The notes under the pieces were generated by a model, which saw nothing but the letters and a program-made list of their open reading frames with translations, was not told where the DNA came from and ran no database searches. A stretch of 64,000 nt of DNA from Rickettsiales bacterium. GTDB taxonomy: Bacteria; Pseudomonadota; Alphaproteobacteria; Rickettsiales; JABIRX01. Position 1 is the first letter of the stretch. Each line of letters opens with the position of its first letter. The position numbers and the translations under genes were made by a program. Where the stretch lies: assembly GCA_965658435.1 (NCBI GenBank), contig CBFHSE010000002.1:239-64238 (forward strand), given 5' to 3'. Below are positions 9,696-48,180 of the stretch, piece by piece.

Positions 9696-9697
9696 AA

Positions 9698-10108: not shown

Positions 10109-10171
10109 TTTTGTTAACTTGAATAAAACTCTTTTTCAAGGAATAATATTGAATAATCAAAATAAGAATTT

Positions 10172-13956: not shown

Positions 13957-14472
13957 ATGAATAAAAATTTTTTAAGACAAAAATTTAAAAAATTACGCTC
14001 ATCTATAAGCGAGGAAGAAAAATTAAAATCTGAAAAATTTATCTTAAAAAAGTTAAAAAATCATCTTCAAGAAAAACAAATTATTGCGATTTATTATCCC
14101 CTAAAATCTGAAGTAAACCTAATTTCATTAAAAGAATATTACCCTAATATTTTGCTTCCTAAAATAATCAATAATAGCTCTCTTAAATTTTTTTCTATTC
14201 AAGAAAAATTAATAAATAATCCAGTTTTCAAAATAAAAGAGCCCATTGGCCATAAAGAAGTAAAGCCCGATATTATTATTTGCCCTTTAATTGCTTTTGA
14301 CAAACATAAAAATCGTCTAGGTTATGGCAAAGGTTATTATGATAAATTTTTAAATAACAACAACGTCACTAAAATTGCAACTGCATTTTCAGTACAAGAA
14401 GCTGAACAAATTCCTTATGAAAATCATGACATCAAAATGGATTTAATAATAACTGAAAAAGATATATTCTAA
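13957..14472 (+). CDS. 5-formyltetrahydrofolate cyclo-ligase (MTHFS)
   Basis: LRQKFKKLRSSISEEEK..., PLIAFDKHKNRLGYGKGYYDKFL. The ORF opens at 13912, but that extension overlaps the putative 6S RNA, so I prefer the MNKNF start. Confidence 0.8.
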   Translation: MNKNFLRQKFKKLRSSISEEEKLKSEKFILKKLKNHLQEKQIIAIYYPLKSEVNLISLKEYYPNILLPKIINNSSLKFFSIQEKLINNPVFKIKEPIGHKEVKPDIIICPLIAFDKHKNRLGYGKGYYDKFLNNNNVTKIATAFSVQEAEQIPYENHDIKMDLIITEKDIF

Positions 14473-15188
14473 TTTTCAATTGAAAGCTTAGATTTACGAG
14501 ACTTTCTCCTTCTTTTACCAACCCTTCTTTTACTAACTATATCCATATCAACTTTAACTCTTTTTTCAATATAGCTAGTTAAACATTCAGATAATTCATC
14601 CATTTTTTCTCTGAAAAAATGATCAGCTCCTTCTATCAAAGAGTAATCGATTTCTATATTTTTCTGTAATGATAATTTATCAGCCAATTTTGCAGCGCTT
14701 TCTTCAGGAACAATACTATCTTTATTTCCCTGCACAATAATCCCTGATGCAGTGCATGGGGCTAAAAAAGAAAAGTCATATTTATTTGCAGGTGGAGAAA
14801 TAGAAACAAAACCCATTATTTCAGGTCTACGCATCAATAATTGCATAGCAATCCATGAACCAAAAGAAAAACCACCTATCCAAAATATATTAGAAGTTGG
14901 ATTTTGTGATTGCAGCCAATCCATAGCTGTTGTCGCATCAGCTAGCTCGCCAATTCCGTCATCATATTTTCCTTGTGATTTACCAACTCCTCTAAAATTA
15001 AACCTTAAAACCGAAAAACCATTATCAACAAATGCTTTAAATAAACTATAAGCAACCTTATTATTCATTGTTCCACCATGAAGTGGATGCGGATGCAACA
15101 CCAAAGCAACCGGAGCTTTAGGTTCATTACTATGGTAGTAACGCCCTTCCAACCTACCTTCAGGACCATTAAATATTATTTCAGGCAT
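14469..15188 (-). CDS. Alpha/beta hydrolase (COG2945-like) with a very basic C-terminal tail
   Basis: GRLEGRY...LHPHPLHGGTMNNKV...FNFRGVGKSQG and the nucleophile elbow GFSFGS. The tail is KRRVGKRRRKSRKSK. Confidence 0.7.
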   Translation of the reverse strand: MPEIIFNGPEGRLEGRYYHSNEPKAPVALVLHPHPLHGGTMNNKVAYSLFKAFVDNGFSVLRFNFRGVGKSQGKYDDGIGELADATTAMDWLQSQNPTSNIFWIGGFSFGSWIAMQLLMRRPEIMGFVSISPPANKYDFSFLAPCTASGIIVQGNKDSIVPEESAAKLADKLSLQKNIEIDYSLIEGADHFFREKMDELSECLTSYIEKRVKVDMDIVSKRRVGKRRRKSRKSKLSIEN

Positions 15189-15284
15189 AGCATATACTTA
15201 AATTGGTTAATAGTTGACTTCTCCGCTTGGTTATTATATACAAGTCAGCATATTTTATTAACTTTAAAATTAAGCAAAGTCAAT

Positions 15285-15707
15285 ATGCTACTTACTACAA
15301 AAGGAAGATACGCAGTTATGGCCATAGTTGATTTAGCACAGCAAGAAAGAGAAAAGCCAATAAAAATGGAGGATATCGCCAAAAGACAAAATATTTCTGT
15401 AAATTATTTAGAACAAATTTTTAATAAATTAAAAAATTCTGGTATCATCATTTCCCAAAAAGGTCCAGGCGGAGGATATTTATTACATGGAAAATCTAAT
15501 CAAATTTTTATCTCAGACGTAATTAAGGCGGTAGAAGAGCCAATAAAATTCACCAAATGTGATAAAAATTCAAATTGCAACGCAGCAGATGTAAAATGCC
15601 AAACACATTTTCTTTGGAAAGGCTTAGAAAAGCATATCCAAAAATACCTTGGCAATATTAGCATTAATGATATTTGCAAAGGAAAAATAGCTAACTTAAA
15701 TTATTAA
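15285..15707 (+). CDS. iscR: Rrf2-family Fe-S cluster regulator IscR
   Basis: MLLTTKGRYAVMAIVDLA... is a winged HTH. The gene lies first in the isc operon. The upstream part of the ORF (15078-15284) overlaps the hydrolase gene and is rejected. Confidence 0.85.
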   Translation: MLLTTKGRYAVMAIVDLAQQEREKPIKMEDIAKRQNISVNYLEQIFNKLKNSGIIISQKGPGGGYLLHGKSNQIFISDVIKAVEEPIKFTKCDKNSNCNAADVKCQTHFLWKGLEKHIQKYLGNISINDICKGKIANLNY

Positions 15708-15713
15708 TATAAA

Positions 15714-16925
15714 ATGCAAAAACCTGTTTATCTAGATTATCAATCAACCACCCCAACCGATCCAAGAGTTGTAGAAAAAATGCTACCATATTTTGCTGAA
15801 AAGTTCGGCAATCCTCACTCTAGAAGTCATTCTTATGGCTGGGTAACTGAGGAAGCCAGCGAAATAGCTCGAGAACATGTAGCAAATCTAATTGGAGCAA
15901 GCCCAAAAGAAATAATTTTTACTTCAGGTGCAACTGAATCAAATAATATTGCCATTAAAGGAATTGCCAAATTTCATGAAAAACAAAAAAATCACATAAT
16001 TACAGTAGCTACAGAACATAAATGTGTTTTAGATTCATGTAGAATATTAGGAACAGAAGGCTTTGATATAACCTATTTACCTGTTCAATCTAATGGCCTA
16101 ATTGATTTAGAAGAACTTAAAAAAGCTATTACTGATAAAACCATTTTAATTTCAGTAATGACTGTAAATAATGAAATTGGGGTAATCCAACCTATCAAGG
16201 AAATTGGAAAAATTTGTAAAGAAAACTCAATATATTTCCATACTGATGCAGCACAAGCATTTGGTAAAATACCCCTTGATGTAGATGAGATGAACATTGA
16301 TTTAATGAGCATTTCAGCACACAAAATCTACGGGCCAAAAGGAATTGGAGCTTTATATATCAGAAGAAAACCTCGCGTAAGATTAAAACCAATAATTAGT
16401 GGTGGAGGTCAAGAAAGAGGCTACAGATCAGGAACTTTACCTACGCCTCTAGCAGTAGGTTTTGGTGAAGCGGCAAGATTAGCTAAAATTGAAATGTCTG
16501 AAAATAAACAACATATCGAAAAACTAACAGCTAAATTATATGATAGCTTAACAAAACAAGTACCAGATATTTATCTAAATGGTGATAAGCAACATAGAAT
16601 TTATGGTAATTTAAATTTAAGCTTTGCTTATATTGAAGGAGAGTCGATGATCATGGCAATAAAAGACCTTGCAGTATCTTCTGGATCTGCTTGCACCTCA
16701 GCTTCACTTGAACCATCATATGTTCTTAAAGCACTTGGCGTAGATGAAGAGCTAGCTCATACATCAATTCGTTTTGGAGTTGGAAAATTTACAACTGAAG
16801 AAGAAATTGATTTTGCAATAAAAACAATTCTTAATTCAATTGAAAAATTAAGATCATTAAGCCCTCTTTGGGAAATGGCTCAAGAAGGAATTGACCTCAA
16901 ATCAATACAATGGGAAACACATTAA
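15714..16925 (+). CDS. iscS: Cysteine desulfurase IscS
   Basis: [19 protein letters not shown] (PLP lysine), SSGSACTS (active-site Cys), C-terminal WE..H. Confidence 0.95.
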
Positions 16926-16947
16926 TTAACTTTTTATTTATTTTATT

Positions 16948-17340
16948 ATGGCATATAGCGAAAAACTTTTAGATCATTACAACAATCCTCAAAATGTTGG
17001 TTCATTAGATAAAAAACAGAAAAATGTTGGCACAGGGCTTGTAGGAGCTCCAGCATGTGGTGACGTTATGAAGTTGCAAATTGAAGTTAATGAAAAAGGC
17101 ACAATTGACAAAGCATGTTTTAAAACTTTTGGTTGTGGCTCTGCAATTGCATCTAGCTCTTTAGTTACAGAATTAATTAAAGGCAAAACCTTAGAAGATG
17201 CTCAAAAAATTAAAAATACAGATATAGCCAAAGAATTATCTTTACCTCCGGTAAAAATTCATTGTTCTGTGCTTGCTGAGGATGCAATAAAAGCTGCAAT
17301 TACAGATTATCAAAAAAAACAATCTGAAAATAATGAGTAA
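16948..17340 (+). CDS. iscU: Fe-S cluster scaffold IscU
   Basis: YNNPQNVG, GAPACGDVMKL, FGCGSAIASSS, LPPVKIHCSVLA. Confidence 0.95.
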   Translation: MAYSEKLLDHYNNPQNVGSLDKKQKNVGTGLVGAPACGDVMKLQIEVNEKGTIDKACFKTFGCGSAIASSSLVTELIKGKTLEDAQKIKNTDIAKELSLPPVKIHCSVLAEDAIKAAITDYQKKQSENNE

Positions 17341-28385: not shown

Positions 28386-29705
28386 TTAATTCGTTAATTC
28401 GGTTGATAATGAGTGAAGCCCTTCTTTAAAGATTTTGATATTTAGCCCTTCAGGTTTGATATCAATTTGTTTGATTAGAAGGTTGATAATTCTTGCCTGT
28501 TCAACTGGAAATAACTCATCCCAGACTTTATCTATTGTTTTAAATGAATTGATGATTTTATTTTCTGATAAATCGTCTTTCTTGGCGTTAATAGTGTGAA
28601 TTATAAACTCCGGCTTTTTTAGAAAATTTAAAACTTGGTCAGTCACTAAACTTTCAGTTTCACTAGCAGATATTCTGCCAACTTTGCATAGATCATTATT
28701 ACCTTTGTGCTTTGACTGGCAAATATAATAGCGATATCTTTTGCCTTGCTTGGTAGTATAAGTTGGCGTCATTTTTGAACCACATATTCCGCAATTCATT
28801 ATTCCTTTTAAAAGTGGAGCTGTTGTGACCCTTAATGATGGTAATTGAATTTTGTTGTTGGTTGATAGTAACTCTCTTGTTTTTTGCCAAATTTGCTCGT
28901 CAATAATTGGTTTGTGCATTCCATCAAAAAGCTTGTCTTTGTGCTTAACTTTGCCGATATAGAGGTGATTATTTAAAATTCTTCTGACATTAGATTTGTT
29001 AAATCTTTTACCCTTATGAAGCTTACCATTATTTGAGATCCAAGTTTTGGTGGTAAAGCCAAGATTATTTAATTCTCTAGCTGTTTCAGTAATTGAGGCT
29101 GTTTCTGCAAAATTTTGAAATAATATCCTGACAATTTTCGCCTCTTTTTCATTTATGAGTAATTTTCTATCTTTTACATCATAGCCAAGAGGAATATTAC
29201 CGCCCATCCACATACCTCTTTTGCATGAGGCTTCTAATTTATCTTTAATTCTCTCAGAAGTTAATTCTCTTTCATATTGGGCAAAACTTAACAGAACATT
29301 AAGCATTAATCGCCCCATTGAATTGGCAGTATTAAAACTCTGGGTTACTGATACAAAACTAACATTATGTTCATCAAGTAGTTGGATAATTTTAGAAAAA
29401 TCTAAAAGCGATCTGGTTAGACGATCAATTTTATAAACAATAATACAGTCAATTTTATCTTCTCTAATATCCTGAAATAATCTTTGAAGAGCTGGCCTTT
29501 CTAAATTGCCTCCGCTAAATCCGCCATCATCATAATGATCATTTACCAAAACCCAGCCTTCATGAGCTTGAGAGGAGATATAATTTTCTGCTGAGGCTCT
29601 TTGTGCGTCAAGGGAATTAAACTCTTGCTCTAATCCTTCCTCACAAGATTTTCTGGTATAGATAGCGCATCTTATTTTTTGTTTATTTCTTATGTTATCT
29701 ATCAT
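28386..29705 (-). CDS. Large serine recombinase (resolvase/invertase N-domain plus recombinase and zinc-ribbon domains)
   Basis: RCAIYTRKSCEE...SLDAQR (catalytic Ser region), GGFSGGNLERPALQRL, VYKIDRLTRSL, QYERELTSERIKD, and a C-terminal CGICGSKM...YYICQSK zinc ribbon. Confidence 0.9.
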   Translation of the reverse strand: MIDNIRNKQKIRCAIYTRKSCEEGLEQEFNSLDAQRASAENYISSQAHEGWVLVNDHYDDGGFSGGNLERPALQRLFQDIREDKIDCIIVYKIDRLTRSLLDFSKIIQLLDEHNVSFVSVTQSFNTANSMGRLMLNVLLSFAQYERELTSERIKDKLEASCKRGMWMGGNIPLGYDVKDRKLLINEKEAKIVRILFQNFAETASITETARELNNLGFTTKTWISNNGKLHKGKRFNKSNVRRILNNHLYIGKVKHKDKLFDGMHKPIIDEQIWQKTRELLSTNNKIQLPSLRVTTAPLLKGIMNCGICGSKMTPTYTTKQGKRYRYYICQSKHKGNNDLCKVGRISASETESLVTDQVLNFLKKPEFIIHTINAKKDDLSENKIINSFKTIDKVWDELFPVEQARIINLLIKQIDIKPEGLNIKIFKEGLHSLSTELTN

Positions 29706-30121
29706 GACTGTAATTTAAAGAATTTAGGCCCATTCCATCTGGTGCCGGTTATTTTTCTGGCAATAGCAGATAGGCTTTTCCACTTCTTGCCGTCATATTC
29801 AAAAGAATCCTTTAAAACTTCGACCTGATGCATCACTCCTTGCCACTCTCTGCATATTTTAGTACCTGGTAATAGATCAGTATGTTTCTTTAAAATTGAG
29901 GTTGATGTGCCATTAGCGATTTTATTGAGATTGTCGATTGATTCATCATCTAAAGCCCCAAATGCCAATTCTTGTAGCCGATAAGCTATTCTTGGCCTTA
30001 AAAATTCCTTATTGGTGTTAGCCACGCATTTTTTAGGCATAATCTCATTATAAATTTGCCGAAGGTCACTTGCTGACTTACTTTCTAATTCAATAATTTG
30101 TCTAATAATTGATTTGCTCAT
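29702..30121 (-). CDS. DUF2924-family protein (serine recombinase companion)
   Basis: LLPGTKICREWQGVMHQVEVLKDSFEYDGKKWKSLSAIARKITGTRWNGPKFFKL matches the DUF2924 signature from memory. Overlaps the recombinase start by 4 nt. Confidence 0.7.
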   Translation of the reverse strand: MSKSIIRQIIELESKSASDLRQIYNEIMPKKCVANTNKEFLRPRIAYRLQELAFGALDDESIDNLNKIANGTSTSILKKHTDLLPGTKICREWQGVMHQVEVLKDSFEYDGKKWKSLSAIARKITGTRWNGPKFFKLQS

Positions 30122-30423: not shown

Positions 30424-30771
30424 TTAACCAAGATATTTTAGGTGGGACTTACATTTATTCTTACAATCTGAACTACCAAAACCAGGAACAATAATTTCAC
30501 CGCAAGTTTCCTGATTTAAGATACATTCTTCTGCCTCAAATTTATGAACTTCGGTAATTTTGGCATTTTTGTCATTTAGCAGATAATCGATATGCCAGTG
30601 AAGTTTTTTATCAGGAGATTTTGATTGATGTCTTTTAATTCTTTCATCGATATTTTTCTTGGCTGATCCTGCGTAGATATAATGTCCTCTTGGAAAGGTA
30701 AATCTGCCGAGCTTTCCTACCTCTATTTCAATATTGTTCTTAATGTTAATGTGAAGTTGATAACTAATCAT
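30424..30771 (-). CDS. GIY-YIG superfamily protein (DUF123 / Uri-like endonuclease)
   Basis: GHYIYAGSAKKNIDERIKRH...LHWHIDYL pattern. Confidence 0.7.
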   Translation of the reverse strand: MISYQLHINIKNNIEIEVGKLGRFTFPRGHYIYAGSAKKNIDERIKRHQSKSPDKKLHWHIDYLLNDKNAKITEVHKFEAEECILNQETCGEIIVPGFGSSDCKNKCKSHLKYLG

Positions 30772-30796
30772 TTATTGCATTTTATAATTCTTTATT

Positions 30797-30813
30797 ATAC
30801 TATTAGGGGGTAT
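30797..30813. promoter_or_regulatory. Putative CsoR/RcnR-type operator (ATAC-N5-GGGGGTAT)
   Basis: ATACTATTAGGGGGTAT lies about 20 nt upstream of the first gene of a cassette that ends with a CsoR-family repressor. It resembles G-tract operators such as the B. subtilis copZA site ATACCCTACGGGGGTAT (from memory). Confidence 0.4.
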
Positions 30814-30834
30814 AGGCATAATTATTTATTTATC

Positions 30835-31467
30835 ATGAAATTATCTCTGACTCTAACAATATTATTATCATTTCTTGCAAGCAATGTTTTTGCTCGTCCT
30901 ATTTCTTATTCTGGCGGTACAACAATTATGCAAAATAATGATGCCATCAAAAATTCTATTCATGTTCATTATTCTCCAAGTTATAAATATTCAGTTGGTT
31001 ATAAGGGTGAATATTTTAGAAGAGATAAAATAGCCTTAAATGGGCTTCAATTAAATAATCTTCTTAAAAGATGGAACTTGCCAGGCTCTCAAGGAAATAT
31101 TTATCTTAAAACATCTGTTGGCAATGCCAATAAATCAGGAGAAAATGAATTATATGGTTTTACAGGGATAGCAGGAGATTTTGAAACTAGAAAATATTTC
31201 ATCTCTTATGAAAATAGATATTACAAATCAGATGGCAATATTATCTCTCAGTTTCAACAAAGTGCTAGGGTTGGAGTAGCTCCTTATGTTGCAGGTTATG
31301 GCAATCTTCATACTTGGCTAATGCTGCAAGTAACTCATACTCCTGAATTTGAAGGAGATGAGGTCATTGCGACTCCTCTTGTTAGATTCTTCAAGGGCGC
31401 TAATTTAGCAGAATTTGGAGTTAGTTCTAACAAAAGATTTTTATTTAACTTTATTGCGAGATTTTAA
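30835..31467 (+). CDS. Secreted protein, probable small outer-membrane beta-barrel
   Basis: Signal peptide MKLSLTLTILLSFLASNVFA, alternating aromatic/polar strands, and a C-terminal ...NFIARF. The upstream part of the ORF (30682-30834) overlaps the GIY-YIG gene and is rejected. Confidence 0.5.
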   Translation: MKLSLTLTILLSFLASNVFARPISYSGGTTIMQNNDAIKNSIHVHYSPSYKYSVGYKGEYFRRDKIALNGLQLNNLLKRWNLPGSQGNIYLKTSVGNANKSGENELYGFTGIAGDFETRKYFISYENRYYKSDGNIISQFQQSARVGVAPYVAGYGNLHTWLMLQVTHTPEFEGDEVIATPLVRFFKGANLAEFGVSSNKRFLFNFIARF

Positions 31468-31469
31468 TT

Positions 31470-31754
31470 ATGTTTAGAAAATTTATTACTGTTTTTTCAC
31501 TTATATTTTTAATCAATATTTCTTCTGCCTTTGCTAAAGAAATTAATGTTGATGTTAATGGCTTAGTTTGTGAATTTTGCGCCGTAACGATAGAAAAGAA
31601 TTTCAAAAAGAAGGATGAAATTAAAGAGGTAAAGGTTGATTTAGATCAAAAGAAAGTATTTCTAACTTTTAAAGATGGTAAAGATTTATCAGATAAAATT
31701 ATAAAAGATACCATCGTTAATAATGGCTATAATGTGGTTAAAATAAATAGGTAG
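31470..31754 (+). CDS. Periplasmic heavy-metal-associated (HMA) domain protein
   Basis: Signal peptide plus GLVCEFCA (the GMxCxxC-type metal site) in a ferredoxin-like ~70 aa domain. Confidence 0.75.
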   Translation: MFRKFITVFSLIFLINISSAFAKEINVDVNGLVCEFCAVTIEKNFKKKDEIKEVKVDLDQKKVFLTFKDGKDLSDKIIKDTIVNNGYNVVKINR

Positions 31755-31757
31755 ATT

Positions 31758-32132
31758 ATGATTAAAATAAAAGAATCATTATTACCATTTTTTGGATTAT
31801 TTACCTCAATTTCCACAATATTATGCTGTGCATTGCCAATAATTTTAGTAACACTTGGCATGGGAGCGGTTTTTGCTAGTTTAACTGCGAGTTTCCCTTT
31901 TATTACATGGTTGGCTGAAAGAAGCTTATATTTATTTGCTATAGCTACAGCTCTTCTCTTAATTGGTGGATATTTTATCTTTATAAAACCTCAAACCTGT
32001 CCAGCCGATAAAAAACTAGCCAAGATATGCAATAAAACCAAAAAATTCAATAAGATTATCTGGTGGATATCAGTAATAATTTTAGCTATCAGCTTCTTTT
32101 TTAAATATATTTTAATCCTATTAATTTCTTAA
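31758..32132 (+). CDS. MerC/MerT-like CC-motif heavy-metal transport membrane protein
   Basis: First TM helix carries ILCCALP. There are four TM segments and a second Cys pair, CPADKKLAKIC. Confidence 0.5.
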   Translation: MIKIKESLLPFFGLFTSISTILCCALPIILVTLGMGAVFASLTASFPFITWLAERSLYLFAIATALLLIGGYFIFIKPQTCPADKKLAKICNKTKKFNKIIWWISVIILAISFFFKYILILLIS

Positions 32133-32135
32133 AAT

Positions 32136-32411
32136 ATGGCATCCCTAATTACTGTTTTTATAACTGTTTTTTTAGCTGAACTTGGTGACAAAACGCAATT
32201 AGCAACAATATTATTTTCTTCGAATAAGGACACTAATTCATTTATGGTTTTTCTAGCTGCTTCATTTGCATTAGTAGCATCAACGGCAATTGCAGTTTTG
32301 CTTGGTAGCTATGGGGCTAAATATTTAGATATGATTCCATTAAAATTAATTGCTGGAATTGGCTTTATAGCTATCGGAACTTTTACAATTTTTGAACATT
32401 TTAAGGCTTAA
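32136..32411 (+). CDS. UPF0016 (GDT1/TMEM165) single-domain cation transporter subunit
   Basis: ELGDKTQLAT signature, 91 aa, three TM segments. Confidence 0.75.
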   Translation: MASLITVFITVFLAELGDKTQLATILFSSNKDTNSFMVFLAASFALVASTAIAVLLGSYGAKYLDMIPLKLIAGIGFIAIGTFTIFEHFKA

Positions 32412-32415
32412 AATT

Positions 32416-32715
32416 ATGACTAAAGAAAATAAAGCATGCTGCAGTAAAGAACATCCTGACAATTCAAAAGAATTACCAAGGTTAAAGAAAATTGCGGGTC
32501 AGATTAATGGCATCATCAAGATGGTTGATGATAAGAGATATTGTGTAGATATTTTGCAACAATTAGGAGCCGTTAAATCCGCTATCAACTCTCTTCAAGC
32601 TAACTTGCTTGAGACTCACTTAACCAATTGTGTTAAAGAAGCTTTTGAATTAAAGAAAGATGCTGATATTGAAGAAAAAATAAATGAGCTAAAGGAGATT
32701 TTTAAAAAATATTAA
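32416..32715 (+). CDS. CsoR/RcnR/FrmR-family metal-sensing transcriptional repressor
   Basis: LKKIAGQINGIIKMVDDKRYCVDILQQLGAVKSAINSL...HLTNCV carries the family's C-H-C ligand pattern. Start taken at MTKENK. Confidence 0.85.
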   Translation: MTKENKACCSKEHPDNSKELPRLKKIAGQINGIIKMVDDKRYCVDILQQLGAVKSAINSLQANLLETHLTNCVKEAFELKKDADIEEKINELKEIFKKY

Positions 32716-33137
32716 GTAATAAAAATAATTAATAAATATCGGCTTAATTTACTAATTGTTACCAATGTCAGGAATAGCCAAATATTAGTTCTAAATATTC
32801 CTGCAATTATCGTTAACGGATCGCCAATTATTGGCATCCAAGCTAACAATAGTGACCACACTCCCCATTTTTGATAAAATCTAGAATATTTATCAATTTT
32901 CCTTTTTTGGATTGGAAACCATTTTTTGTCTTTGAATTTTATCAGATAATATCCAATAAACCAATTTACCAAAGCTCCCAAAACATTTCCTATTGTTGCA
33001 ATTGTAACCAACAAAAATTTATCATGATTATTTGCAATATTTAAAGATGCTAAAACAAGTTCTGACTGAGCTGGAAATATTGTTGCTGCTAGAAATGAAG
33101 ATAAGAATAGGAATATTAAATCTAAAAAATTATTCAT
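32712..33137 (-). CDS. YqaA/DedA (SNARE-associated) family membrane protein
   Basis: About 140 aa, four TM segments, FRTNIWLF... and PIIGDPLTIIAGI motif. Confidence 0.7.
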   Translation of the reverse strand: MNNFLDLIFLFLSSFLAATIFPAQSELVLASLNIANNHDKFLLVTIATIGNVLGALVNWFIGYYLIKFKDKKWFPIQKRKIDKYSRFYQKWGVWSLLLAWMPIIGDPLTIIAGIFRTNIWLFLTLVTISKLSRYLLIIFIT

Positions 33138-33140
33138 TAT

Positions 33141-33674
33141 CTAATATTCTCTGATTACTTTTGCTACCACTCCCCAAAAATGTAGATTTTGATCTGCATC
33201 TTCAATATCAGGATAATCATCATTATCTGAAACTAACTTAGTTACTCCATTTTTTTGACTTAGCCTTTTTACAACCGCACCATTATCAACTGAGGCAATT
33301 ATAATATCTCCATCTCTAGCCTCTTTAGACTTATTAACTAAAAGAATATCATCAGGAAGGATGCCTGCATCTTTCATTGAATAACCTGATACTTTTACCA
33401 AAAAATGATCATTGGGATTTTGAACCATAAATTTTTCGTTCAGATTGTATAATTCATAATTATCCGAATCGGTAAAATTTGGCGCACCTGCCTCAACTTT
33501 CATATCAAATAAAGGAAGAGCAAAATCTTTTGTCTTGCTTTCCATCATATCTTTAACTGTATCCATCATGCTAACAGGCACTCTCATGATTCTTGTTGGT
33601 TCGCCATATCGACCCTGTCCAGATGGCCTTCCAGCACCTTTTCTTGCTCCACCACGTGTCTTGTTTTTCATCAA
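33141..33674 (-). CDS. S24 (LexA/UmuD-family) autopeptidase, probable SOS-cleavable prophage repressor
   Basis: The C-terminal 130 aa are collinear with UmuD/LexA: PLFDMKVEAGAPNF, VSGYSM (Ser), DGDIIIA, VVKRL (Lys). The N-terminal basic arm GGARKGAGRPSGQGRYGEPTRIMRVPVS is a type I recall in mobile-element S24 repressors. No umuC gene is adjacent. Confidence 0.7.
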   Translation of the reverse strand: MMKNKTRGGARKGAGRPSGQGRYGEPTRIMRVPVSMMDTVKDMMESKTKDFALPLFDMKVEAGAPNFTDSDNYELYNLNEKFMVQNPNDHFLVKVSGYSMKDAGILPDDILLVNKSKEARDGDIIIASVDNGAVVKRLSQKNGVTKLVSDNDDYPDIEDADQNLHFWGVVAKVIREY

Positions 33675-33763
33675 AAAAGAATTTTTAATTGTAAAAAAAT
33701 TAAAGTAAATTTAGAATAAGGTACTTAATTCATTTTAAAATTCAATTAAAACTATATTCTCTC
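33675..33763. promoter_or_regulatory. Divergent promoter/operator region between the repressor and rightward genes
   Basis: An 89-bp spacer containing the palindrome TTAATTgtaaaaaAATTAA and a direct AATTCA repeat. No operator was demonstrated. Confidence 0.3.
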
Positions 33764-34942
33764 ATGGAAACAAAGGTAAAAAAATTTATCAGAAATACCC
33801 CAGAAGAAGATTTGAAGAACTTTTTAATCAGTAATGATTTTATTGAAGTTCCTGAAGATTTTAAATGGGATGGTAAGAACCGAAAATATCATAGCTCATT
33901 ATTTGGCATGGTGTGGGCTTGTGAAGATGCCAAAAAACAGAATCTATTTGATACTATTGATAGAGTTCATGGCATGAGTGATGAATTGGGGCAAAATGCC
34001 TTATGTAGCATTGCTGGTAATGATGAGTTATTTTTGGATCAAAAAGGAGAATATGCCAGAGGGCTTTACATGCATCAAAAATTTCCTGATAAATTTAGAA
34101 CGGCGGAATTTTGGGTGTCACATGATTACAAAAGAAAATCAAAAGAATGGAGCTCATTTCATGGGGCAAAAAATAAGAAATTAGATAAATCAGCAGAAAA
34201 TATCATTAGGTTTAAAGAAGAGGTTTTAAGTCATCTCGATATCAGTAGAAAATTAAATCTAGAATTTAGCTGTCGTGACAAAAATGACAAAGATGGCAAT
34301 AAATTAGAAATTTGTATTTTAACTGGCTTTCATGATGGTTTGCCACAATCAATACAAACTTTTGATAAGGATGAAGTGGTAACAAGGCATTTTGCGCCAG
34401 CTAAAGATTTTTCAATTAGCTATGACCCAATAAGTGGATTGATTGATGTGATTTCAAATTCAAAAGATAATCGAGAATTTTTAGCCAAGAAATTTGCCAA
34501 TATTTTCCTAAAAAGTGCTGACGATAAATTTGAGATCAGGCTTAAAAAATATAATCTTGCCAAATTTAAGTCCTATCAGGATTTGATGAAAGATGTTGAT
34601 TTGAAGGATGGAATTGAAGATATCAAAGTTACCCTCATCAAACTAAAACCTCTCAACAGCAAAAACTCGACCACTCTTGAATCTCCATTTTCAGAAAAAA
34701 GAACAATTTATGAAATAGCAGAAAATTGGTTTGCTGGCAATAGTCCTTTATCAAACTCTTTTGAAATCAAAAAAGTAAAATTATCAATTAAATTCAAGCA
34801 AGATACCAAAAACCCCAGAGGTAAATTAATTAATGTAAATATTACCGATCCTAATGGCTGTGATTTAAAAGATCGAACGGAAAAAGAAAAAATCATCGGT
34901 GATAAATATCTAGAAAAATGGGGAATTGTTGAAAAAATATGA
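33764..34942 (+). CDS. Hypothetical protein (392 aa), no recognisable domain
   Basis: Long ORF with a balanced, protein-like composition. Its stop overlaps the next ATG (ATGA). Confidence 0.6.
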   Translation: METKVKKFIRNTPEEDLKNFLISNDFIEVPEDFKWDGKNRKYHSSLFGMVWACEDAKKQNLFDTIDRVHGMSDELGQNALCSIAGNDELFLDQKGEYARGLYMHQKFPDKFRTAEFWVSHDYKRKSKEWSSFHGAKNKKLDKSAENIIRFKEEVLSHLDISRKLNLEFSCRDKNDKDGNKLEICILTGFHDGLPQSIQTFDKDEVVTRHFAPAKDFSISYDPISGLIDVISNSKDNREFLAKKFANIFLKSADDKFEIRLKKYNLAKFKSYQDLMKDVDLKDGIEDIKVTLIKLKPLNSKNSTTLESPFSEKRTIYEIAENWFAGNSPLSNSFEIKKVKLSIKFKQDTKNPRGKLINVNITDPNGCDLKDRTEKEKIIGDKYLEKWGIVEKI

Positions 34943-35883
34943 AGTTAGATAGCCAGACATTTAAATTGCTAATTGATATCGTAGAGCAAGCAGATCCAAA
35001 TATTACTCACTCCCACCTCAAGTCAAATCTTGGCACAGAAATTGCCAACAACCTAATTCAAAATAATTACTTCAATAAAGGCAGAGATTTAGAAACCTAT
35101 TATTTGCCAGGTCAAGATCGAGAAGTCTATGTTGAATGGAATAATGATGAAAATTCCTACTTTTATTTATCGGATTTTGGTAAATTTTTGCCAGTTTCCG
35201 AAGAAGAGCTAAAAACTTATGATATTAATTTCACTAAACTAACCGAATTTATTGCCAATCAATTTGATATATCCAAAAACAACAAAAAGGATTCTAATAG
35301 CTATCTCAATGATCTTTTATTTTTTGTTGGTGATACAAATATAAACAAGAAAAAACATGCTATATTTTTTGCTAGAAGATTGACTAATCAAATGATTTTT
35401 CGAGATGTTGATCAGTTATTTTTAGATGAATCACCAACAAATTTTCCAAAATTAATTCTTACCTCATCCAATGAATATTGCCCAACAAAATTAAGTGATG
35501 ATGGCAAAATAATCTCAATTCCAAAACTTCTGACATTTTCAAAAGATAAGCTATTCAACATGGATTATATTTCAAATGTGCTTGGTAAAGGAGCTAGTGA
35601 TGAATATAAGCCATATATCCATTGTTCAGAAGGTGGAGCAGTTCTATTTATTGGTGATAAATCATATGATGTTGGTGGCGTTTCCCAGAGACAAGCAATT
35701 GAAATTATGTGTCGCTATTATCTAAAAAATGGAAATGAAAAAATCAGATGGCGCACAGTAATGGATGAAATCAATCCTGATTCAGATTCCAGGGCTCGTG
35801 ATCTTTTTAGAAAAAGCAAAATATCAGATTTAATCCTATCAAAAAATGGCTTCGTTTGGTTTAAAACCGAAGAAAATTCATAA
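34939..35883 (+). CDS. Hypothetical protein (314 aa), no recognisable domain
   Basis: Translationally coupled to the 392-aa ORF. No catalytic or nucleotide-binding motif seen. Confidence 0.6.
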   Translation: MKLDSQTFKLLIDIVEQADPNITHSHLKSNLGTEIANNLIQNNYFNKGRDLETYYLPGQDREVYVEWNNDENSYFYLSDFGKFLPVSEEELKTYDINFTKLTEFIANQFDISKNNKKDSNSYLNDLLFFVGDTNINKKKHAIFFARRLTNQMIFRDVDQLFLDESPTNFPKLILTSSNEYCPTKLSDDGKIISIPKLLTFSKDKLFNMDYISNVLGKGASDEYKPYIHCSEGGAVLFIGDKSYDVGGVSQRQAIEIMCRYYLKNGNEKIRWRTVMDEINPDSDSRARDLFRKSKISDLILSKNGFVWFKTEENS

Positions 35884-36001
35884 AAAAATCAAAAAAATTT
35901 AATTCCTCCCGAATCTCCCCCTTTGCTCCCCCCGATCTCCCTCTGACCATAGTTCTAAAGTTACCTTAGTTTTTTTATTAACTAACTAATGGTTTCTCAA
36001 C

Positions 36002-36223
36002 ATGACTGAACAATTACTTCTATCAGAAAAATCCTTAGCAAGAAAGTGGGGAATTTCTCACAAAACCTTGCAGAGGTGGCGTTGGCTCAAAATGGGTCCC
36101 GCTTACATCAAGATCGGTGGCCGTATCAGGTATAGCACCGATTCCATAAGGGATTATGAGACTAGCAATAGTCACTTAACTCCAATTCCTCCTTCTACCC
36201 CATTATCAACTTCAATTATTTAA
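36002..36223 (+). CDS. Excisionase/AlpA-like helix-turn-helix protein
   Basis: LLSEKSLARKWGISHKTLQRWRWLKMGPAYIKIGGRIRYSTDSIRDYE is a MerR/Xis-type winged HTH pattern. Confidence 0.7.
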   Translation: MTEQLLLSEKSLARKWGISHKTLQRWRWLKMGPAYIKIGGRIRYSTDSIRDYETSNSHLTPIPPSTPLSTSII

Positions 36224-38182: not shown

Positions 38183-39874
38183 ATGATACTGAGACCAAGA
38201 CAGCAAGAATTTGTAGATAAGAGTGTTGCCGCCCTAAAAGAACATGGCAACACTCTGGGAATAGCTCCAACAGGTGCAGGCAAAACTTTGATTCTATCCA
38301 AAGTCACAGGAGAGATAGTTCAAAAAAAGCAAAAAGCTCTAATTCTTGCTCATCGTGATGAGTTAACTTCTCAAAATAGGGATAAATTTCTTAAAATTAA
38401 TCCTAAATTTTCTACATCAATTTTTGATGCTAAAGAGAAATCGTTTGCTGGTCAGGCTGTTTTTGCCATGGTGCAAACTTTATGCAGGCAAAATAGCCTG
38501 AACCAAATTCCTAAAATTGATTTTTTGGTAATTGATGAAGCTCATCATTCAACATCAGATTCTTACCAAAGGATTATCGCTCAAGCAAAAAGTCTAAATC
38601 CAAATCTTCTAATTTATGGCGTAACCGCAACTCCTAATAGAAGCGATAAGAAAAACCTATCTGGCGTATTTTCTAATGTTGCTGATCAAATCAGGATATC
38701 AGAGTTAATTGCGTCAGGTCATTTAGTGCCACCTAGAACCTACATCATAGATGTTGGCACGCAAAGAGATTTAGGCAAAGTTAAGAAAACTGCTGGTGAT
38801 TTTGATATGAAGGAAGTTGAGGAGATTATGAATAAGTCTCCGATCACTCAGGAAGTTTTCAATAAATGGCAAAAATATGCCAGTGACAGAAAAACAGTAA
38901 TTTTTTGTTCCACTATTAAGCACGCAATTTCTGTTGCAGAAATTTTCAATAATAATGGCGTCAAAACAGTTTTAATTCATGGAAATTTAACTGATTTAGA
39001 GAGGAAAAACACTTTAGCCGAATATGAAACTGGTGACGCAAAAGTAATCGTAAATGTAGCTGTTCTAACTGAGGGTTGGGATTATCAGCCAACCTCCTGC
39101 GTAGTTTTGCTTCGTCCCTCCTCATTTAAATCTACCATGATTCAAATGATTGGTAGAGGGCTTCGAGTGGTATGTCCTGATCTTCATCCAAATATCAGCA
39201 AAGATGATTGCATAATTTTAGATTTTGGAACTTCTAGCCTAACTCACGGCTGTTTAGAAGTTGATGCAAATTTAGAAAATAACAAAAAATCAGATAAGAA
39301 AAAGCAGCCAAATTCACAGAAAAATTGTTTTGAATGCGATGCTCTAATTCCTAGCACTTCAAAAGAATGCCCCTTATGTGGAGCTGATCTTCATATTTTA
39401 GAACAAGAAGAGGTAAAGGAAGAGTTGGTTGGTTTTGAGATGACAGAAATTGATCTACTTACCAAAAGATCAAACTTCAAATGGTGCGATCTATTTGATG
39501 ATGAATCTTCCTTTATGGCCTGCGGCTTTAATGCATTTGCTGGAGCTTTTTTACTAAATGATAATTGGCACGCAATTGGTGGTAGTGAGTTTTTAGGGGT
39601 AAAATTATTAGCACATGGTTCAAAACAAATTTGCCTTGCTGCAGCCGATGATTTCCTCAATGAAAATGAAACCTACGAGAACGCCTATAAATCCAAAAAA
39701 TGGCTAAATGAAGCGGCATCAATAAAACAGATCAATCTCCTACCTCATAAATACCGAACCGATTTTGGCATCACCAAATATAAGGCAGCCAATCTCCTCA
39801 AATTCCATTTTAACAAAACAGCAATCAAGAGCCTGTTACTTGAGCATCAACCTCAAATGCGAGGCGTGTCATGA
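38183..39874 (+). CDS. Superfamily-2 DEAD/DEAH-box helicase with C-terminal zinc ribbon
   Basis: LRPRQQEF, APTGAGKT (motif I), VIDEAHH (II), TATP (III), VAVLTEGWD (V), QMIGRGLR (VI), and CFECD...CPLCG. Confidence 0.85.
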   Translation: MILRPRQQEFVDKSVAALKEHGNTLGIAPTGAGKTLILSKVTGEIVQKKQKALILAHRDELTSQNRDKFLKINPKFSTSIFDAKEKSFAGQAVFAMVQTLCRQNSLNQIPKIDFLVIDEAHHSTSDSYQRIIAQAKSLNPNLLIYGVTATPNRSDKKNLSGVFSNVADQIRISELIASGHLVPPRTYIIDVGTQRDLGKVKKTAGDFDMKEVEEIMNKSPITQEVFNKWQKYASDRKTVIFCSTIKHAISVAEIFNNNGVKTVLIHGNLTDLERKNTLAEYETGDAKVIVNVAVLTEGWDYQPTSCVVLLRPSSFKSTMIQMIGRGLRVVCPDLHPNISKDDCIILDFGTSSLTHGCLEVDANLENNKKSDKKKQPNSQKNCFECDALIPSTSKECPLCGADLHILEQEEVKEELVGFEMTEIDLLTKRSNFKWCDLFDDESSFMACGFNAFAGAFLLNDNWHAIGGSEFLGVKLLAHGSKQICLAAADDFLNENETYENAYKSKKWLNEAASIKQINLLPHKYRTDFGITKYKAANLLKFHFNKTAIKSLLLEHQPQMRGVS

Positions 39875-45450: not shown

Positions 45451-45492
45451 AGGCGCGTACTAATTAATTTTGGTACGCGCCTTTTTTATTTT
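45451..45492 (+). terminator. Rho-independent terminator
   Basis: AGGCGCGTAC-(12 nt loop)-GTACGCGCCT is a perfect 10-11 bp GC-rich stem, followed by TTTTTTATTTT. Confidence 0.65.
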
Positions 45493-45518
45493 AAACGAAA
45501 ATCTTTTAAGAAAATTTA

Positions 45519-46886
45519 GTGTGGATTCACATACCTTCAGAATTTTATCCCTCTGTAGCGGAGTCGGAGGAATCGAGCTTGGATTCAAGCTGGCTGTTCC
45601 CTCTGTTAGAACAGTCGGTTACATCGAGAACGAAGCCTTTGCGTGCAGTATCTTGGAAGCGCGCATGCAAGACAAAACCTTGGATGAAGCACCTATTTGG
45701 ACGGATCTTAAAACCTTCAACGGCAAACCTTGGCGTGGAAAAGTGGATTGCCTCACTGGAGGATATCCCTGCCAGCCATTTAGTGTCGCAGGAAAAAAAC
45801 TCGCTGAAAAAGACCCAAGACATCTCTGGCCAGAAATTAAACGACTCATCACAGAAATTGAACCACCCATCTGCTTCTTTGAAAATGTCGGCGGACATTT
45901 ACGATTGGGATTTGAGCAAGTCGCAAATGACCTATCAGAATTGGGTTACAAAATTAAGGCAGGCTTGTTTACAGCGCAGGAAGTCGGTGCTCCTCATAAA
46001 AGAGAAAGATTATTCATCTTGGCCTACAGTGATAGCGTCAGATCATCTATCAAATCCAACAGAAACTCTGGAGAGTTGGAAGAAGAGATCGGAGGCGAAG
46101 AAAAAACAAGGAATCAATCTTCACAAGCCACTAAGGATTGCTGTTCAGGAATTAGAAAATTGGCCAACTGTTGTGACATCGGATGCGGGCGTGGGAGCGA
46201 TCATATCCAAGAACGACACTTACAAAAAAACCTCAACAGGAAGTTTGAGGAAAATCAACAAGAATGGCAAAGACGGATCACTGGGACTTGCCAGAACAGT
46301 CAAGATGTGGCCGACAGTGAGAAGTTCATCTGCCAATGGGTCATGCCAAAACGAGATCAAGATGGGCAATCCAAAAGCGAGATTGGAAGTAGAAGTTCAG
46401 AACTGGCCAACACCAAGAGTGATGGAGCCGGGAAGCACGAGTCCGGGATATGGCAAGGGATTAAAAAACACTGCCATAAATTGGCGAACTCCCAATGCCT
46501 CGGATGGCGAGGGAGGAATAATGGAATGGAGAGATGGCAAAGCAGCAAAATTAAAGCTGAGGGATCATTCTGTTCATGCAGTGAAATCATGGGCAACACC
46601 AACAACGAGGGATTGGAAAGATGGCAGTGCGAAGAGCGAAAATGTTCCGACCAACTCCCTTCTTGGCCGCCAAGCCCCGCGAGCTATGAGCAGTGGGAAC
46701 GAATCCCAGATAACCTTAAACCCGCAATTCACAAATTGGCTGATGGGATGGCCAATCGGGTGGACGAAATTCGAGCCTCTGGAAATGGAGTGGTTCCGCT
46801 GGTTGCAGCTTATGCATGGAGAGTTCTTAGTGATGGAATGTATTTGGCTAAATGTAAAACAGAATCAAAAGAATCATGAAGGATAA
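45519..46886 (+). CDS. Overlapping +1-frame ORF (frame B) with six W-P/A/R-T repeats and an LMGWPIGWT motif
   Basis: 455 codons open in a frame offset by +1 from the C5-MTase. GTG start lies 2 nt before the frame-A GTG. Repeats are SWPTVIASD (46020), NWPTVVTSD (46161), MWPTVRSS (46308), NWPTPRV (46404), NWRTPNASDGEGG (46482), SWATPTTRDWKDG (46590), followed by LNPQFTNWLMGWPIGWT (46716-46766). Whether it is translated is unknown. Confidence 0.4.
   Translation: MWIHIPSEFYPSVAESEESSLDSSWLFPLLEQSVTSRTKPLRAVSWKRACKTKPWMKHLFGRILKPSTANLGVEKWIASLEDIPASHLVSQEKNSLKKTQDISGQKLNDSSQKLNHPSASLKMSADIYDWDLSKSQMTYQNWVTKLRQACLQRRKSVLLIKEKDYSSWPTVIASDHLSNPTETLESWKKRSEAKKKQGINLHKPLRIAVQELENWPTVVTSDAGVGAIISKNDTYKKTSTGSLRKINKNGKDGSLGLARTVKMWPTVRSSSANGSCQNEIKMGNPKARLEVEVQNWPTPRVMEPGSTSPGYGKGLKNTAINWRTPNASDGEGGIMEWRDGKAAKLKLRDHSVHAVKSWATPTTRDWKDGSAKSENVPTNSLLGRQAPRAMSSGNESQITLNPQFTNWLMGWPIGWTKFEPLEMEWFRWLQLMHGEFLVMECIWLNVKQNQKNHEG
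45521..46879 (+). CDS. DNA (cytosine-5)-methyltransferase, frame A
   Basis: Motif I LCSGVGG (45551), IV GGYPCQPFS (45758), VI FFENV (45875), VIII APHKRERLFI (45989), and the motif X region ADGMANRVDEIRASGNGVVP (46739-46798). The ~230 aa between VIII and X look non-globular. The ORF opens at a TTG at 45470 inside the terminator hairpin, so GTG at 45521 is preferred. The stop overlaps the next ATG. Confidence 0.7.
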   Translation: MDSHTFRILSLCSGVGGIELGFKLAVPSVRTVGYIENEAFACSILEARMQDKTLDEAPIWTDLKTFNGKPWRGKVDCLTGGYPCQPFSVAGKKLAEKDPRHLWPEIKRLITEIEPPICFFENVGGHLRLGFEQVANDLSELGYKIKAGLFTAQEVGAPHKRERLFILAYSDSVRSSIKSNRNSGELEEEIGGEEKTRNQSSQATKDCCSGIRKLANCCDIGCGRGSDHIQERHLQKNLNRKFEENQQEWQRRITGTCQNSQDVADSEKFICQWVMPKRDQDGQSKSEIGSRSSELANTKSDGAGKHESGIWQGIKKHCHKLANSQCLGWRGRNNGMERWQSSKIKAEGSFCSCSEIMGNTNNEGLERWQCEERKCSDQLPSWPPSPASYEQWERIPDNLKPAIHKLADGMANRVDEIRASGNGVVPLVAAYAWRVLSDGMYLAKCKTESKES

Positions 46887-48180
46887 TTTTTTGCCAAAAA
46901 TGGCAGACCATATTGAGATGAAGTCAGTTGAGGAGTTAATTCCATACTCCAAAAATGCTAGAACTCACAGCGAGAATCAAGTGGTGCAAATTGCCAATAG
47001 CATTATTGAATTTGGATTTACCAACCCAGTTTTAATTGATGGAGATAAAGGAATAATTGCCGGCCATGGAAGATTAATGGCAGCTAAAAAACTAAATTTA
47101 TCTCAAGTTCCAGTTGTTATTCTTGATCATTTAAGCGAAGCACAAAAGCGCGCTTATATTATAGCTGATAACAAATTAGCAGAAAATGCTGGCTGGGATG
47201 AAGAAATTTTAGCAAATGAACTCCATGATCTGAAAGAAGAAAATTTTGATTTAGATCTAATCGGCTTTGAAGATCAGGAATTAGAACGATTATTTACCAA
47301 CCTCTATGAATCAGACGAAAATGAGGAAGAGGAAAATTTACCAGAAATTGAAGAAAAGCCAATCTCAAAAGCCGGTGATATTTGGTTGCTTGGTGATCAC
47401 AAATTAATTTGTGGTGATTCATGCAAATTAGAAACTTACCAAGCCCTTCTTACCAATGAGCTAGCCGATATGACCTTCACCGATCCACCTTACAATGTGG
47501 ATTATGGCAACACAATGAAGGATAATTTAATTGGCAAAAAGAACGCTAAAACTGGCAAGGAATATAAAAACGCATCAGGGCAAAGAACAATTTTAAATGA
47601 TAATCTTGGTGATGATTTCCCTAAATTTCTTTTTGATTGTTGCTCAAATATTTTGGCACGTACAAAGGGAGCTTGTTATATTTGTATGAGTAGCTCAGAG
47701 CTTCATAATTTACAAAAAGCATTTATTGATGCTGGTGGTAAATGGTCAACTTTTATCGTCTGGGCAAAAAATCATTTCACTCTTGGTAGAAGTGATTACC
47801 AAAGACAATATGAGCCAATACTTTATGGCTGGAAAGAAAAGAACGATCATTATTGGTGTGGTGACAGAAATCAATCTGATGTTTGGTATTTTAACAAACC
47901 AAATAAGAGCGAGCTTCACCCAACAATGAAGCCTGTAGAACTCGTTAAAAAAGCTATTTTAAATTCATCTAAAACTGATGATATTATTCTCGATCCCTTT
48001 GGTGGATCTGGCTCAACTTTAATTGCAGCCGAGCAGTTAAAAAGAAGATGCAGAATGATTGAATTAGATCCGAAATATGTGGATGTTATAATTAAAAGAT
48101 GGCAAAATTTAACCGGTAAAAAAGCAATAAATTCGATTAGTGAAAAAAGCTTTGATGAAATTTTAAATGACAATGAGTAA
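46876..48180 (+). CDS. ParB-like nuclease domain fused to a beta-class N6-adenine/N4-cytosine DNA methyltransferase
   Basis: ParB N-domain (NARTHSENQV...NPVLID...IIAGHGRLMAA), motif IV TDPPYNV, and later motif I DPFGGSGSTLIAAEQL (order IV then I, i.e. beta class). Confidence 0.9.
   Translation: MKDNFLPKMADHIEMKSVEELIPYSKNARTHSENQVVQIANSIIEFGFTNPVLIDGDKGIIAGHGRLMAAKKLNLSQVPVVILDHLSEAQKRAYIIADNKLAENAGWDEEILANELHDLKEENFDLDLIGFEDQELERLFTNLYESDENEEEENLPEIEEKPISKAGDIWLLGDHKLICGDSCKLETYQALLTNELADMTFTDPPYNVDYGNTMKDNLIGKKNAKTGKEYKNASGQRTILNDNLGDDFPKFLFDCCSNILARTKGACYICMSSSELHNLQKAFIDAGGKWSTFIVWAKNHFTLGRSDYQRQYEPILYGWKEKNDHYWCGDRNQSDVWYFNKPNKSELHPTMKPVELVKKAILNSSKTDDIILDPFGGSGSTLIAAEQLKRRCRMIELDPKYVDVIIKRWQNLTGKKAINSISEKSFDEILNDNE

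Follow-up and report, generated by a model that had tools for sequence, protein, structure and literature searches.

Two overlapping prophage genes, here called A and B, and the four C-rich direct repeats and promoter-like element that follow them together make up, on balance, a single portable two-protein transcriptional controller of the operon directly downstream. They lie in a 64,000-nucleotide stretch of the genome of a Rickettsiales bacterium (GenBank assembly GCA_965658435.1, contig CBFHSE010000002.1, positions 239 to 64,238 of the forward strand), referred to below as the window, and the complete unit of A, B and repeats is compact (2.2 kb). The conserved element of repeats, -10-like hexamer and ribosome-binding site (RBS), and a position that known controllers of Bub-type operons also occupy, argue for regulation rather than for a defence effector.

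A coupled and co-conserved gene pair

Gene A (33764-34942, + strand, ATG start) encodes the conserved partner, of 392 amino acids, and gene B (34939-35883, + strand, ATG start) the fast-evolving partner, of 314 amino acids. The open reading frame (ORF) calls confirm what a preliminary description of the region had reported, namely that the stop codon of A and the start codon of B share an ATGA (34939-34942). The same description took both proteins to be domain-less, which holds in so far as neither has a significant match in Pfam, NCBIfam or PADLOC at curated cut-offs. A, however, proved to be a full-length member of the PHROGs family phrog_37634, its residues 4-392 matching profile positions 5-408 of 416 (E 1.8e-52); this is a family of unknown function that carries no functional annotation and no link to a partner gene or cis element. 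First searches returned 56 homologs of A and 77 of B, and a profile search of 1.84 billion representatives gave an A family of 1,071 clusters at 50% identity, nearly all of 385-400 amino acids. Neither protein was matched when both were compared by tblastn with 50,697 deposited phage genomes.

Gene contexts were collected for 127 loci (cited by L numbers) from exact-protein look-ups, viral contigs, GTDB genomes and metagenomes. This set contains 118 matches to A, 95 of which have a B-sized ORF that overlaps or adjoins the end of A; behind 94 of these 95 evaluable copies, at identities of A down to ~27%, the ORF matches the B profile. The A loci that remain without B are nearly all contigs that end less than 1 kb past A; the others are a frameshift (L019) and an unclear case (L112). 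Co-conservation of the pair elsewhere, a check that the preliminary description had proposed, is therefore borne out, and A and B are real, conserved genes.

A four-repeat element behind B

The C-rich array that follows B, which we propose as the cis site of A-B, comprises, at 35901-35943 on the + strand, four direct repeats that recur every ~11-12 bp: R1 aattcctccc (35901-35910), R2 aatctccccc (35912-35921), the degenerate R3 tgctcccccc (35924-35933) and R4 gatctccctc (35934-35943). About 12 bp past R4 stands a -10-like hexamer, TAAAGT (35956-35961, + strand), which falls in conserved alignment columns and is accompanied by no -35 hexamer; the ATG of the next gene, HTH_17, is at 36002 on the same strand. 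No other 45 bp of the window are as rich in C (25 of 45 positions, vs 16% overall), the array is the only one of its kind there, and the gap behind B that holds it is the sole sizeable gap in an otherwise tightly packed operon.

A homologous order is found in every main lineage: four units with a degenerate third, ~10-12 bp, a -10-like hexamer, ~30 nt, GGAG and ATG; in the hexamer, the A in second place and the T in sixth are retained across lineages. About 110 bp can be aligned nearly gap-free over 16 loci drawn from all clades, whether the next gene is HTH_17 or Multi_ubiq. The preliminary description had reported the C-rich element as a separate finding; this conserved alignment places it in the same unit as A and B, of which it is a part. 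A strict test for periodic arrays was passed by 40 of 87 loci and by 6 of 870 control windows drawn from them at random, under a criterion that misses many visibly degenerate arrays, including the window's own. Among alphaproteobacterial phages the repeat core is TCYCCCC; gamma-type modules have TCACCCC or TCACACC, and smaller groups have TCACAAG, TTCTGCC or TTCTCTC. The core tracks the A-B lineage and not the cargo, as CAC-type modules precede both ubiquitin-like (Ubl) operons and phage operons (L005, L072, L104).

In L007 and L072 the stretch from B to the repeats contains clear intrinsic terminators. A and B are thus a transcription unit of their own in these loci, and the downstream operon there needs its own promoter. 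In the window, TAAAGT marks the predicted promoter of the downstream operon; a consensus scan of the post-B gap detected no -35/-10 sigma-70 pair. Ahead of A, the 89-bp gap that separates it from the neighbouring S24 gene holds a candidate sigma-70-type promoter, TTGTAA-17-TAGAAT (33689-33717, + strand; 9 of 12 consensus positions), which should be read with caution because promoter-like sites in this region are no more numerous than in shuffled sequence. No operator common to the regions upstream of A and after B was found.

Two further features border the array. Tandem Repeats Finder (TRF) reports an A-rich 11-bp tandem, AAAAATCAAAA, present in 2.3 copies at 35873-35897, which runs across the stop codon of B, ends just before the C-rich array and has the same period. 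A lead-in, AAAAATCAAAAAAA(T/C)TTAATTCC, is conserved in AT-rich relatives.

Predicted structure of A and B

B is poorly conserved, with L39 as its sole invariant residue and G131 and R146 nearly invariant; such a near-lack of invariant residues is as expected of a specificity subunit. The AlphaFold2 (AF2) model of B (predicted local distance difference test, pLDDT, 86.9) shows the secondary-structure order of a winged helix (H-S-H-H-S-S) twice, at residues ~5-56 and ~248-308, with a central alpha/beta domain at ~127-215, and B is accordingly predicted to carry winged helices at both ends. Weak Pfam matches of the B family are mostly to helix-turn-helix (HTH) or winged-HTH domains (Crp-like, MarR, HTH_24, Cro, SarA/Rot and sigma-70 region 4), all sub-threshold. 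The preliminary description had recognised no HTH-type motif, a statement that does not stand beside the topology of the model and the recurrence of these matches in the family. Foldseek searches of the PDB with the model point in the same direction, weakly, to the winged-helix DNA-binding domains of PhoB, KdpE, AfsR, RpaA and GntR (best E-value of any match 0.07; 0.2-0.7 for response-regulator-type domains). The viral Foldseek library gave no match to B, and profile searches of the PDB with separate alignments of the N- and C-terminal domains of B found no meaningful relative. For the two proteins together, the structural and PADLOC checks suggested earlier yielded no significant Foldseek match to the AF2 models and no PADLOC match.

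The partner ORF of A in a high-GC lineage is only a marginal homolog of B (hhalign E about 1e-3). Its C-terminal end in the phage contigs L012-L017 is a classic HTH, LTQKELAAAIKVSESSVSRAI, and a long palindrome, AATTGCAGTTGC...GCAACTGCAATT, comes after the B-like ORF in place of the four direct repeats; the DNA-binding domain and the type of site seem to have been exchanged together in these contigs.

A, unlike B, is well conserved. Its AF2 model (pLDDT 82.9; predicted TM-score, pTM, 0.72) comprises a predicted all-helical N-terminal domain (~1-124) followed by two alpha/beta domains. The C-terminal motif P363-N-G-C366-D-L-K369 (PNGCDLK) is invariant, as are G379, K381-Y382 and W386; W35, G76, F200, Y220, F244, D279, D282, I284 and G353 are further residues that do not vary in clades down to 20-24% identity. 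The conserved columns include no invariant histidine and no P-loop. No Pfam signal recurred among 15 divergent members even at E<=5, sequence-profile searches of the PDB with three A alignments (A1, A2, A3) found no meaningful relative, and A has no convincing match to a known fold. The Foldseek matches of A in the PDB were all of low TM, to the kinetochore proteins CENP-L and CENP-N (TM 0.22-0.36), and we do not accept homology at such values; that fold class, which presumably resembles TBP/RdgC-like DNA-binding folds, serves as a lead only. One sequence from the search of representatives, P0260 (687 amino acids), consists of A-like sequence, with PNTCNV for PNGCDL, that runs straight into B-like sequence. 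The two parts may be a natural fusion of A and B, or the sequence may owe its form to a frameshift or an assembly artefact; a fusion would be compatible with A and B working as a complex.

Partition loci of types II and III, with motor, adaptor and centromere repeats in succession, have a gene order like that of the unit, in which a larger conserved protein precedes a small-domain DNA binder and direct repeats of ~11-12 bp. A would then be an unrecognised motor, B a centromere-binding adaptor and the repeats a centromere, as in parMRC or tubZRC, and the uniqueness of the array in the element would fit. A, however, has no Walker, actin-like or tubulin-like signature or match, the elements integrate by means of a serine recombinase and occur in chromosomes, and the conserved -10/RBS geometry after the repeats would go unexplained. 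We regard this interpretation as very improbable.

One unit ahead of different operons

The element that surrounds the unit is a prophage, with a large serine recombinase and DUF2924 at 28.4-30.1 kb (DUF2924 at 29702-30121); genes for terminase, portal, protease, major head protein and tail fibre are found from 49.5 kb on. The operon downstream of A-B opens with HTH_17 (36002-36223, + strand), a gene for an excisionase/AlpA-like (Xis-like) protein according to Pfam and PHROGs. HTH_17 is followed by phrog_2480, a Sak4-like AAA_24 gene, phrog_2300, a DEAD helicase, DUF6511, a gene for a 252-aa protein and a primase-helicase, and the order of this operon is the same in relatives. Where enough downstream DNA is available, 64 loci continue with HTH_17 and phage recombination and replication genes, and a few go otherwise. 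In these 64 related phage loci A-B is therefore a core component that opens the early operon, not variable cargo. Taken over all loci, the downstream cargo is diverse, comprising three different phage replication modules, an element with MuF_C, SpoVG and a CRI-like protein, and a Bub-like operon.

The Bub-like context is found in Gammaproteobacteria. Nine loci with enough downstream DNA, or ten with the truncated L081, have A-B and the repeats followed by a Multi_ubiq/JAB/ThiF operon; loci of the Ubl type include L036-L040, L075, L076, L083, L085, L121 and L122. The operon encodes a 347-aa Multi_ubiq protein (PF14452, E 9e-30), a 177-aa Prok-JAB protein and a ThiF/E1 protein of ~290 aa. The Multi_ubiq protein has an extra C-terminal part of ~125 aa that, by eye, resembles a fused E2, as in the Ubl-E2 fusion BubAB of Type I Bub operons. 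The flanks differ between loci: genes of type I or type III-like restriction-modification (R-M) systems lie upstream in L036 and L039, genes that resemble those of integrative and conjugative elements (ICEs), judged from N-terminal sequence alone, flank L037 and L040, and in the cultured isolate Oleiphilus messinensis (L121, with B at 8176-9093) the cassette sits amid ordinary chromosomal genes, replication genes not being among them. The five genes (A, B, Ubl, JAB and E1) thus travel as one cassette. The window and all phage-type loci contain no homolog of the Ubl, JAB or E1 genes, so A-B is not an obligate part of a Ubl system. Bil and Bub operons are ubiquitin-like conjugation systems tied to anti-phage immunity (10.1101/2024.11.21.623966), and many of them have the upstream controllers CapW, CapH+CapP or CapK+CapS (PMC13373217; 10.1101/2024.11.21.623953). 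A search of the literature found no paper describing A-B. We also considered A as the missing E2 of the gammaproteobacterial cassette, PNGCDLK being vaguely like the HPN...C loop of UBC domains, and rejected it because the Multi_ubiq protein seems, by eye, to carry a fused E2 already and because phage copies of A occur without an E1 or Ubl gene.

A further type of cargo is found in L070 (10246-12448), where A-B and CAC-type repeats precede a 61-aa ORF, MuF_C, SpoVG and a weakly matching Phage_CRI-like replication protein. Vsr-like and helicase genes lie on one side of it and type I R-M-like genes on the other (Vsr and R-M by eye), and the locus is possibly a satellite-like element within a defence island.

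These contexts bear on the suggestion that the array is an iteron origin, which B, with two winged helices like plasmid RepA/RepE, and a helper A would bind as the start site of replication. The repeats do adjoin the gene of B, for which two winged helices are predicted, helicase, primase and recombination genes come soon after the unit in phages, and L070 and L127 place it beside CRI-like or Prim-Pol replication genes. Yet the same unit heads the Ubl/JAB/E1 operon in chromosomal loci without replication genes, such as that of Oleiphilus messinensis, and it stays constant while the replication module changes. The repeat units, at ~11 bp, are shorter than plasmid iterons, which measure 17-22 bp; no AT-rich unwinding element lies behind the array in high-GC relatives, and neither Pfam nor PHROGs gives a Rep-family match. 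The conserved spacing of the last repeat, -10-like hexamer, RBS and ATG suits a promoter and not an origin, and we judge an origin to be improbable.

Neighbourhood of the unit and the defence reading

Divergent from A lies a gene for a 177-aa S24 peptidase protein (33141-33674, - strand; Peptidase_S24, E 6.7e-26, residues 54-170). The preliminary description took it for the prophage repressor. The Peptidase_S24 match stands, whereas its best PHROG is UmuD-like (E 1e-26, vs 1e-19 for a repressor) and no HTH was recognised in it by Pfam, which makes a role as immunity repressor uncertain; moreover, an S24 gene is found upstream of A in 8 of the 64 loci with at least 3 kb of upstream DNA, all of them close relatives of the window. 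Other loci have different genes to the left of A: a pair of genes for an XRE HTH protein and an M78 peptidase, often with a small DUF2188 gene, in L078, L012, L122, L123 and L125, and just the integrase module in L002, L003, L022 and L031.

The preliminary description read the pair as a candidate defence or exclusion cargo, either a stand-alone two-component defence, superinfection-exclusion or abortive-infection system or, as it can now be extended, a sensor or effector part of a Ubl defence operon. In its favour, the pair adjoins the S24 gene in the window, B evolves fast, relatives stand beside R-M systems and directly upstream of the Bub-like Ubl/JAB/E1 operon, and the GC content of A-B (0.30-0.33) is lower than that of the downstream early genes (0.35-0.39). 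Against this, the unit has a fixed core position in 64 phage loci, which is not that of a cargo slot, and the S24 neighbour is confined to close relatives. PADLOC-DB 2.0 yields no match for the A and B of the window, of Gammaproteobacteria or of viral homologs, nor for A of the high-GC lineage, and no nuclease, NTPase, transmembrane or toxin-like domain was detected in A or B. Phage units exist without any E1, JAB or Ubl gene, and the conserved promoter-like cis element after B would have no role in defence. The likeness to lambda rexAB beside cI, likewise a pair of prophage genes near one of S24 type, does not extend further: rexAB is accessory and co-transcribed with the repressor, whereas A-B is divergent from the S24 gene, heads the early operon as a core component and stays when S24 is absent. 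The first reading of the pair is thus partly supported, in that the genes are uncharacterised, co-conserved and in places neighbours of R-M and Bub-type genes; defence or exclusion is nevertheless less likely than regulation, and we consider it unlikely.

The variable cargo of the window lies between DUF2924 and A (30424-33674) and includes, besides the S24/UmuD-like gene, a DUF123/GIY-YIG gene, the HMA, MerT-like, GDT1 and CsoR-like metal genes and a VTT/DedA gene. L002, L003 and L022 have ~350-550 bp of non-coding DNA in its place. The relatives without the cargo block, L022 (9650-10000), L002, L003 and L031, have a long upstream region in common with a conserved promoter-like box, AAAAAGATTTACAAAAA, and a ~170-nt leader ahead of A, and L022 also has a perfect palindrome, TTAGCGGATTAATCCGCTAA, beside a leftward operon. 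This region may be the true operator and leader of these phages. A DUF2188 gene (about 74-78 aa) often stands directly before A (L078, 5731-5967; L123, 2395-2631; L038, 4979-5203) and in L122 lies nearby on the opposite strand (4769-4993); it is found in phage-type and Ubl-type loci, the window has none, and its product may be an optional third component of the module.

Insertions are tolerated between B and HTH_17, as L124, from the Acanthamoeba endosymbiont UWC8, carries there a PemK toxin gene and, adjacent to it on the opposite strand, an 86-aa ORF (9110-9705), and L078 carries genes for 940 and 122 aa (8287-11523) that by eye resemble a histidine kinase and a response regulator. The GC content rises at the end of B (~35900), from 0.29-0.33 in A-B and the cargo to its left to 0.35-0.39 in the operon from HTH_17 on, a step that may reflect a different origin of the A-B unit or weaker constraint. 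Farther downstream, the DEAD/ResIII helicase of L001, whose A product is 97% identical to that of the window, has 903 aa (14407-17118) and includes Hom_end_hint and LAGLIDADG_3 domains and thus an intein, and the window copy (38183-39874) has 563 aa and no intein. Two adjoining DNA methyltransferase genes occupy 45470-48180 of the window, the second of which (46876-48180) fuses a ParB-like N-terminal domain to a methyltransferase; homologs of this fusion are retained in distant relatives (L005, L010).

Discussion

Phased 11-bp direct repeats in place of a -35 hexamer are the geometry of sites bound by winged-helix activators of the PhoB/OmpR type, and on this likeness we propose that B binds head-to-tail and that A-B activates. 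Transcription of A and B would start at a promoter of their own, upstream of A and just downstream of the phage's immunity genes, of whatever kind, and A and B would be the first genes expressed once that immunity system is relieved. B would then occupy the four phased repeats, spanning about -67 to -25 of a target promoter that has a -10 but no -35 and could not fire well alone, the proximal repeat taking the place of the -35. A, translationally coupled to B, might supply signal sensing or a contact with RNA polymerase. Bound in this way, A-B would switch on the adjacent operon, which in the prophage consists of HTH_17 (Xis-like) and the recombination and replication genes, so that the switch would be the commitment step to excision and replication. 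In some Gammaproteobacteria A-B would turn on the Multi_ubiq/JAB/E1 (Bub-like) operon instead, presumably upon a signal sensed by A.

Several observations weigh against this interpretation. No significant match of sequence or structure, in Pfam, PDB profiles or Foldseek, links B to a DNA-binding family, and the site in the high-GC lineage is a palindrome rather than a set of direct repeats. The array of the window itself is degenerate, and TRF makes no call on it. Covariation of the repeat type with the C-terminal domain of B specifically was uninformative, since A predicts the repeat type just as well as any part of B does, which shows co-inheritance and not a reading of the repeats by B. No terminator lies behind B in the window, and transcription that starts at the promoter of A could run on into the operon and express it, with no need for a second promoter. 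An extended -10 (TGn) is present in several relatives; an activator is perhaps unneeded there, and the repeats could then be a repressor site. Finally, the role of A and of its invariant cysteine is left unexplained.

Among described systems, CapK+CapS offers the closest parallels of position and organization (Chambers et al., EMBO J 2026, PMC13373217). Like A-B, it consists of two co-directional genes directly upstream of a Bub-type operon, often just downstream of R-M genes; its first protein is larger and the presumed sensor, its second has a C-terminal winged helix, which in B is predicted, and the pair is portable, standing ahead of Bub, Bil and CBASS (cyclic-oligonucleotide-based anti-phage signalling system) operons as A-B stands ahead of different cargo operons. 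CapK has HTH, STAS and GHKL kinase domains and CapS is a STAS-wHTH protein of ~184 aa with a conserved phospho-serine (PMC13373217). In contrast, A has no HATPase_c, GHKL or STAS match (E<=5, 15 members) and no anti-sigma kinase among its Foldseek matches in the PDB, and B is longer (314 vs 184 aa) and has no STAS match, nor do its own Foldseek matches in the PDB include a CapS, SpoIIAA or RsfB structure. On domain content and size we therefore reject the identity of A-B with CapK-CapS. The two differ also in that CapS binds palindromes whereas the A-B unit has four direct repeats at ~11-bp phasing, in that CapK/CapS act by de-repression whereas the geometry of the A-B site suggests activation, and in that A-B is mainly a module of phage early regions (64 phage loci vs about 10 Ubl loci sampled).

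CapH+CapP and ImmR+ImmA, which pair an XRE-type HTH repressor with an M78 metallopeptidase, are likewise two-protein switches of phages or ICEs and of defence operons including Bub, but A and B have no HTH_3 or Peptidase_M78 domains. As genuine XRE+M78 pairs are found in several relatives as separate genes just upstream of A-B, A-B would act downstream of that switch or alongside it and is not a version of it. The PhoB/OmpR family and the Streptomyces antibiotic regulatory protein (SARP) activators resemble the A-B unit in the layout of their sites, with tandem direct repeats of ~11 bp that lie on a single DNA face and stop ~10-12 bp before the -10. B differs from the PhoB/OmpR family in having no Trans_reg_C or Response_reg match, two predicted winged helices and an unrelated central domain, and in always coming with a second protein of 392 aa. 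The A-B unit is best described as new in its two protein families without described relatives and in its distinctive four-repeat promoter; that phages and immune operons have controllers of adjacent operons in common was known already.

A bolder proposal, which we advance tentatively, as it may well go further than the unit itself does, is that A, B and the repeats are an undescribed and widespread signal-responsive switch, in effect a fourth 'Cap'-type controller, common to phage lytic commitment and Bub-type operons. A might then be a new fold that senses or contacts RNA polymerase through the PNGCDLK cysteine loop, and B a specificity subunit with two winged helices that reads the phased 11-bp repeats, with B and these repeats diversifying jointly into orthogonal specificities.

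If A-B is such a controller of the adjacent operon, its implications reach both phages and immune operons. For a large family of temperate phages that have serine recombinases and are mostly uncultured, the gene pair and the cis site that control entry into excision and replication would be identified. The hosts of this family are Alphaproteobacteria of marine and freshwater habitats, with endosymbiont and AT-rich Rickettsiales-like genomes among them, from which no lysis-lysogeny circuitry is known. The pair would also add a controller, unrelated in sequence, to CapW, to CapH+CapP and to CapK+CapS as couplers of immune operons to a signal, and would be another case of controllers exchanged between phages and defence islands. 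It further provides a hypothesis at the level of function for phrog_37634 and for a protein family without a Pfam model that counts over 1,000 clusters.

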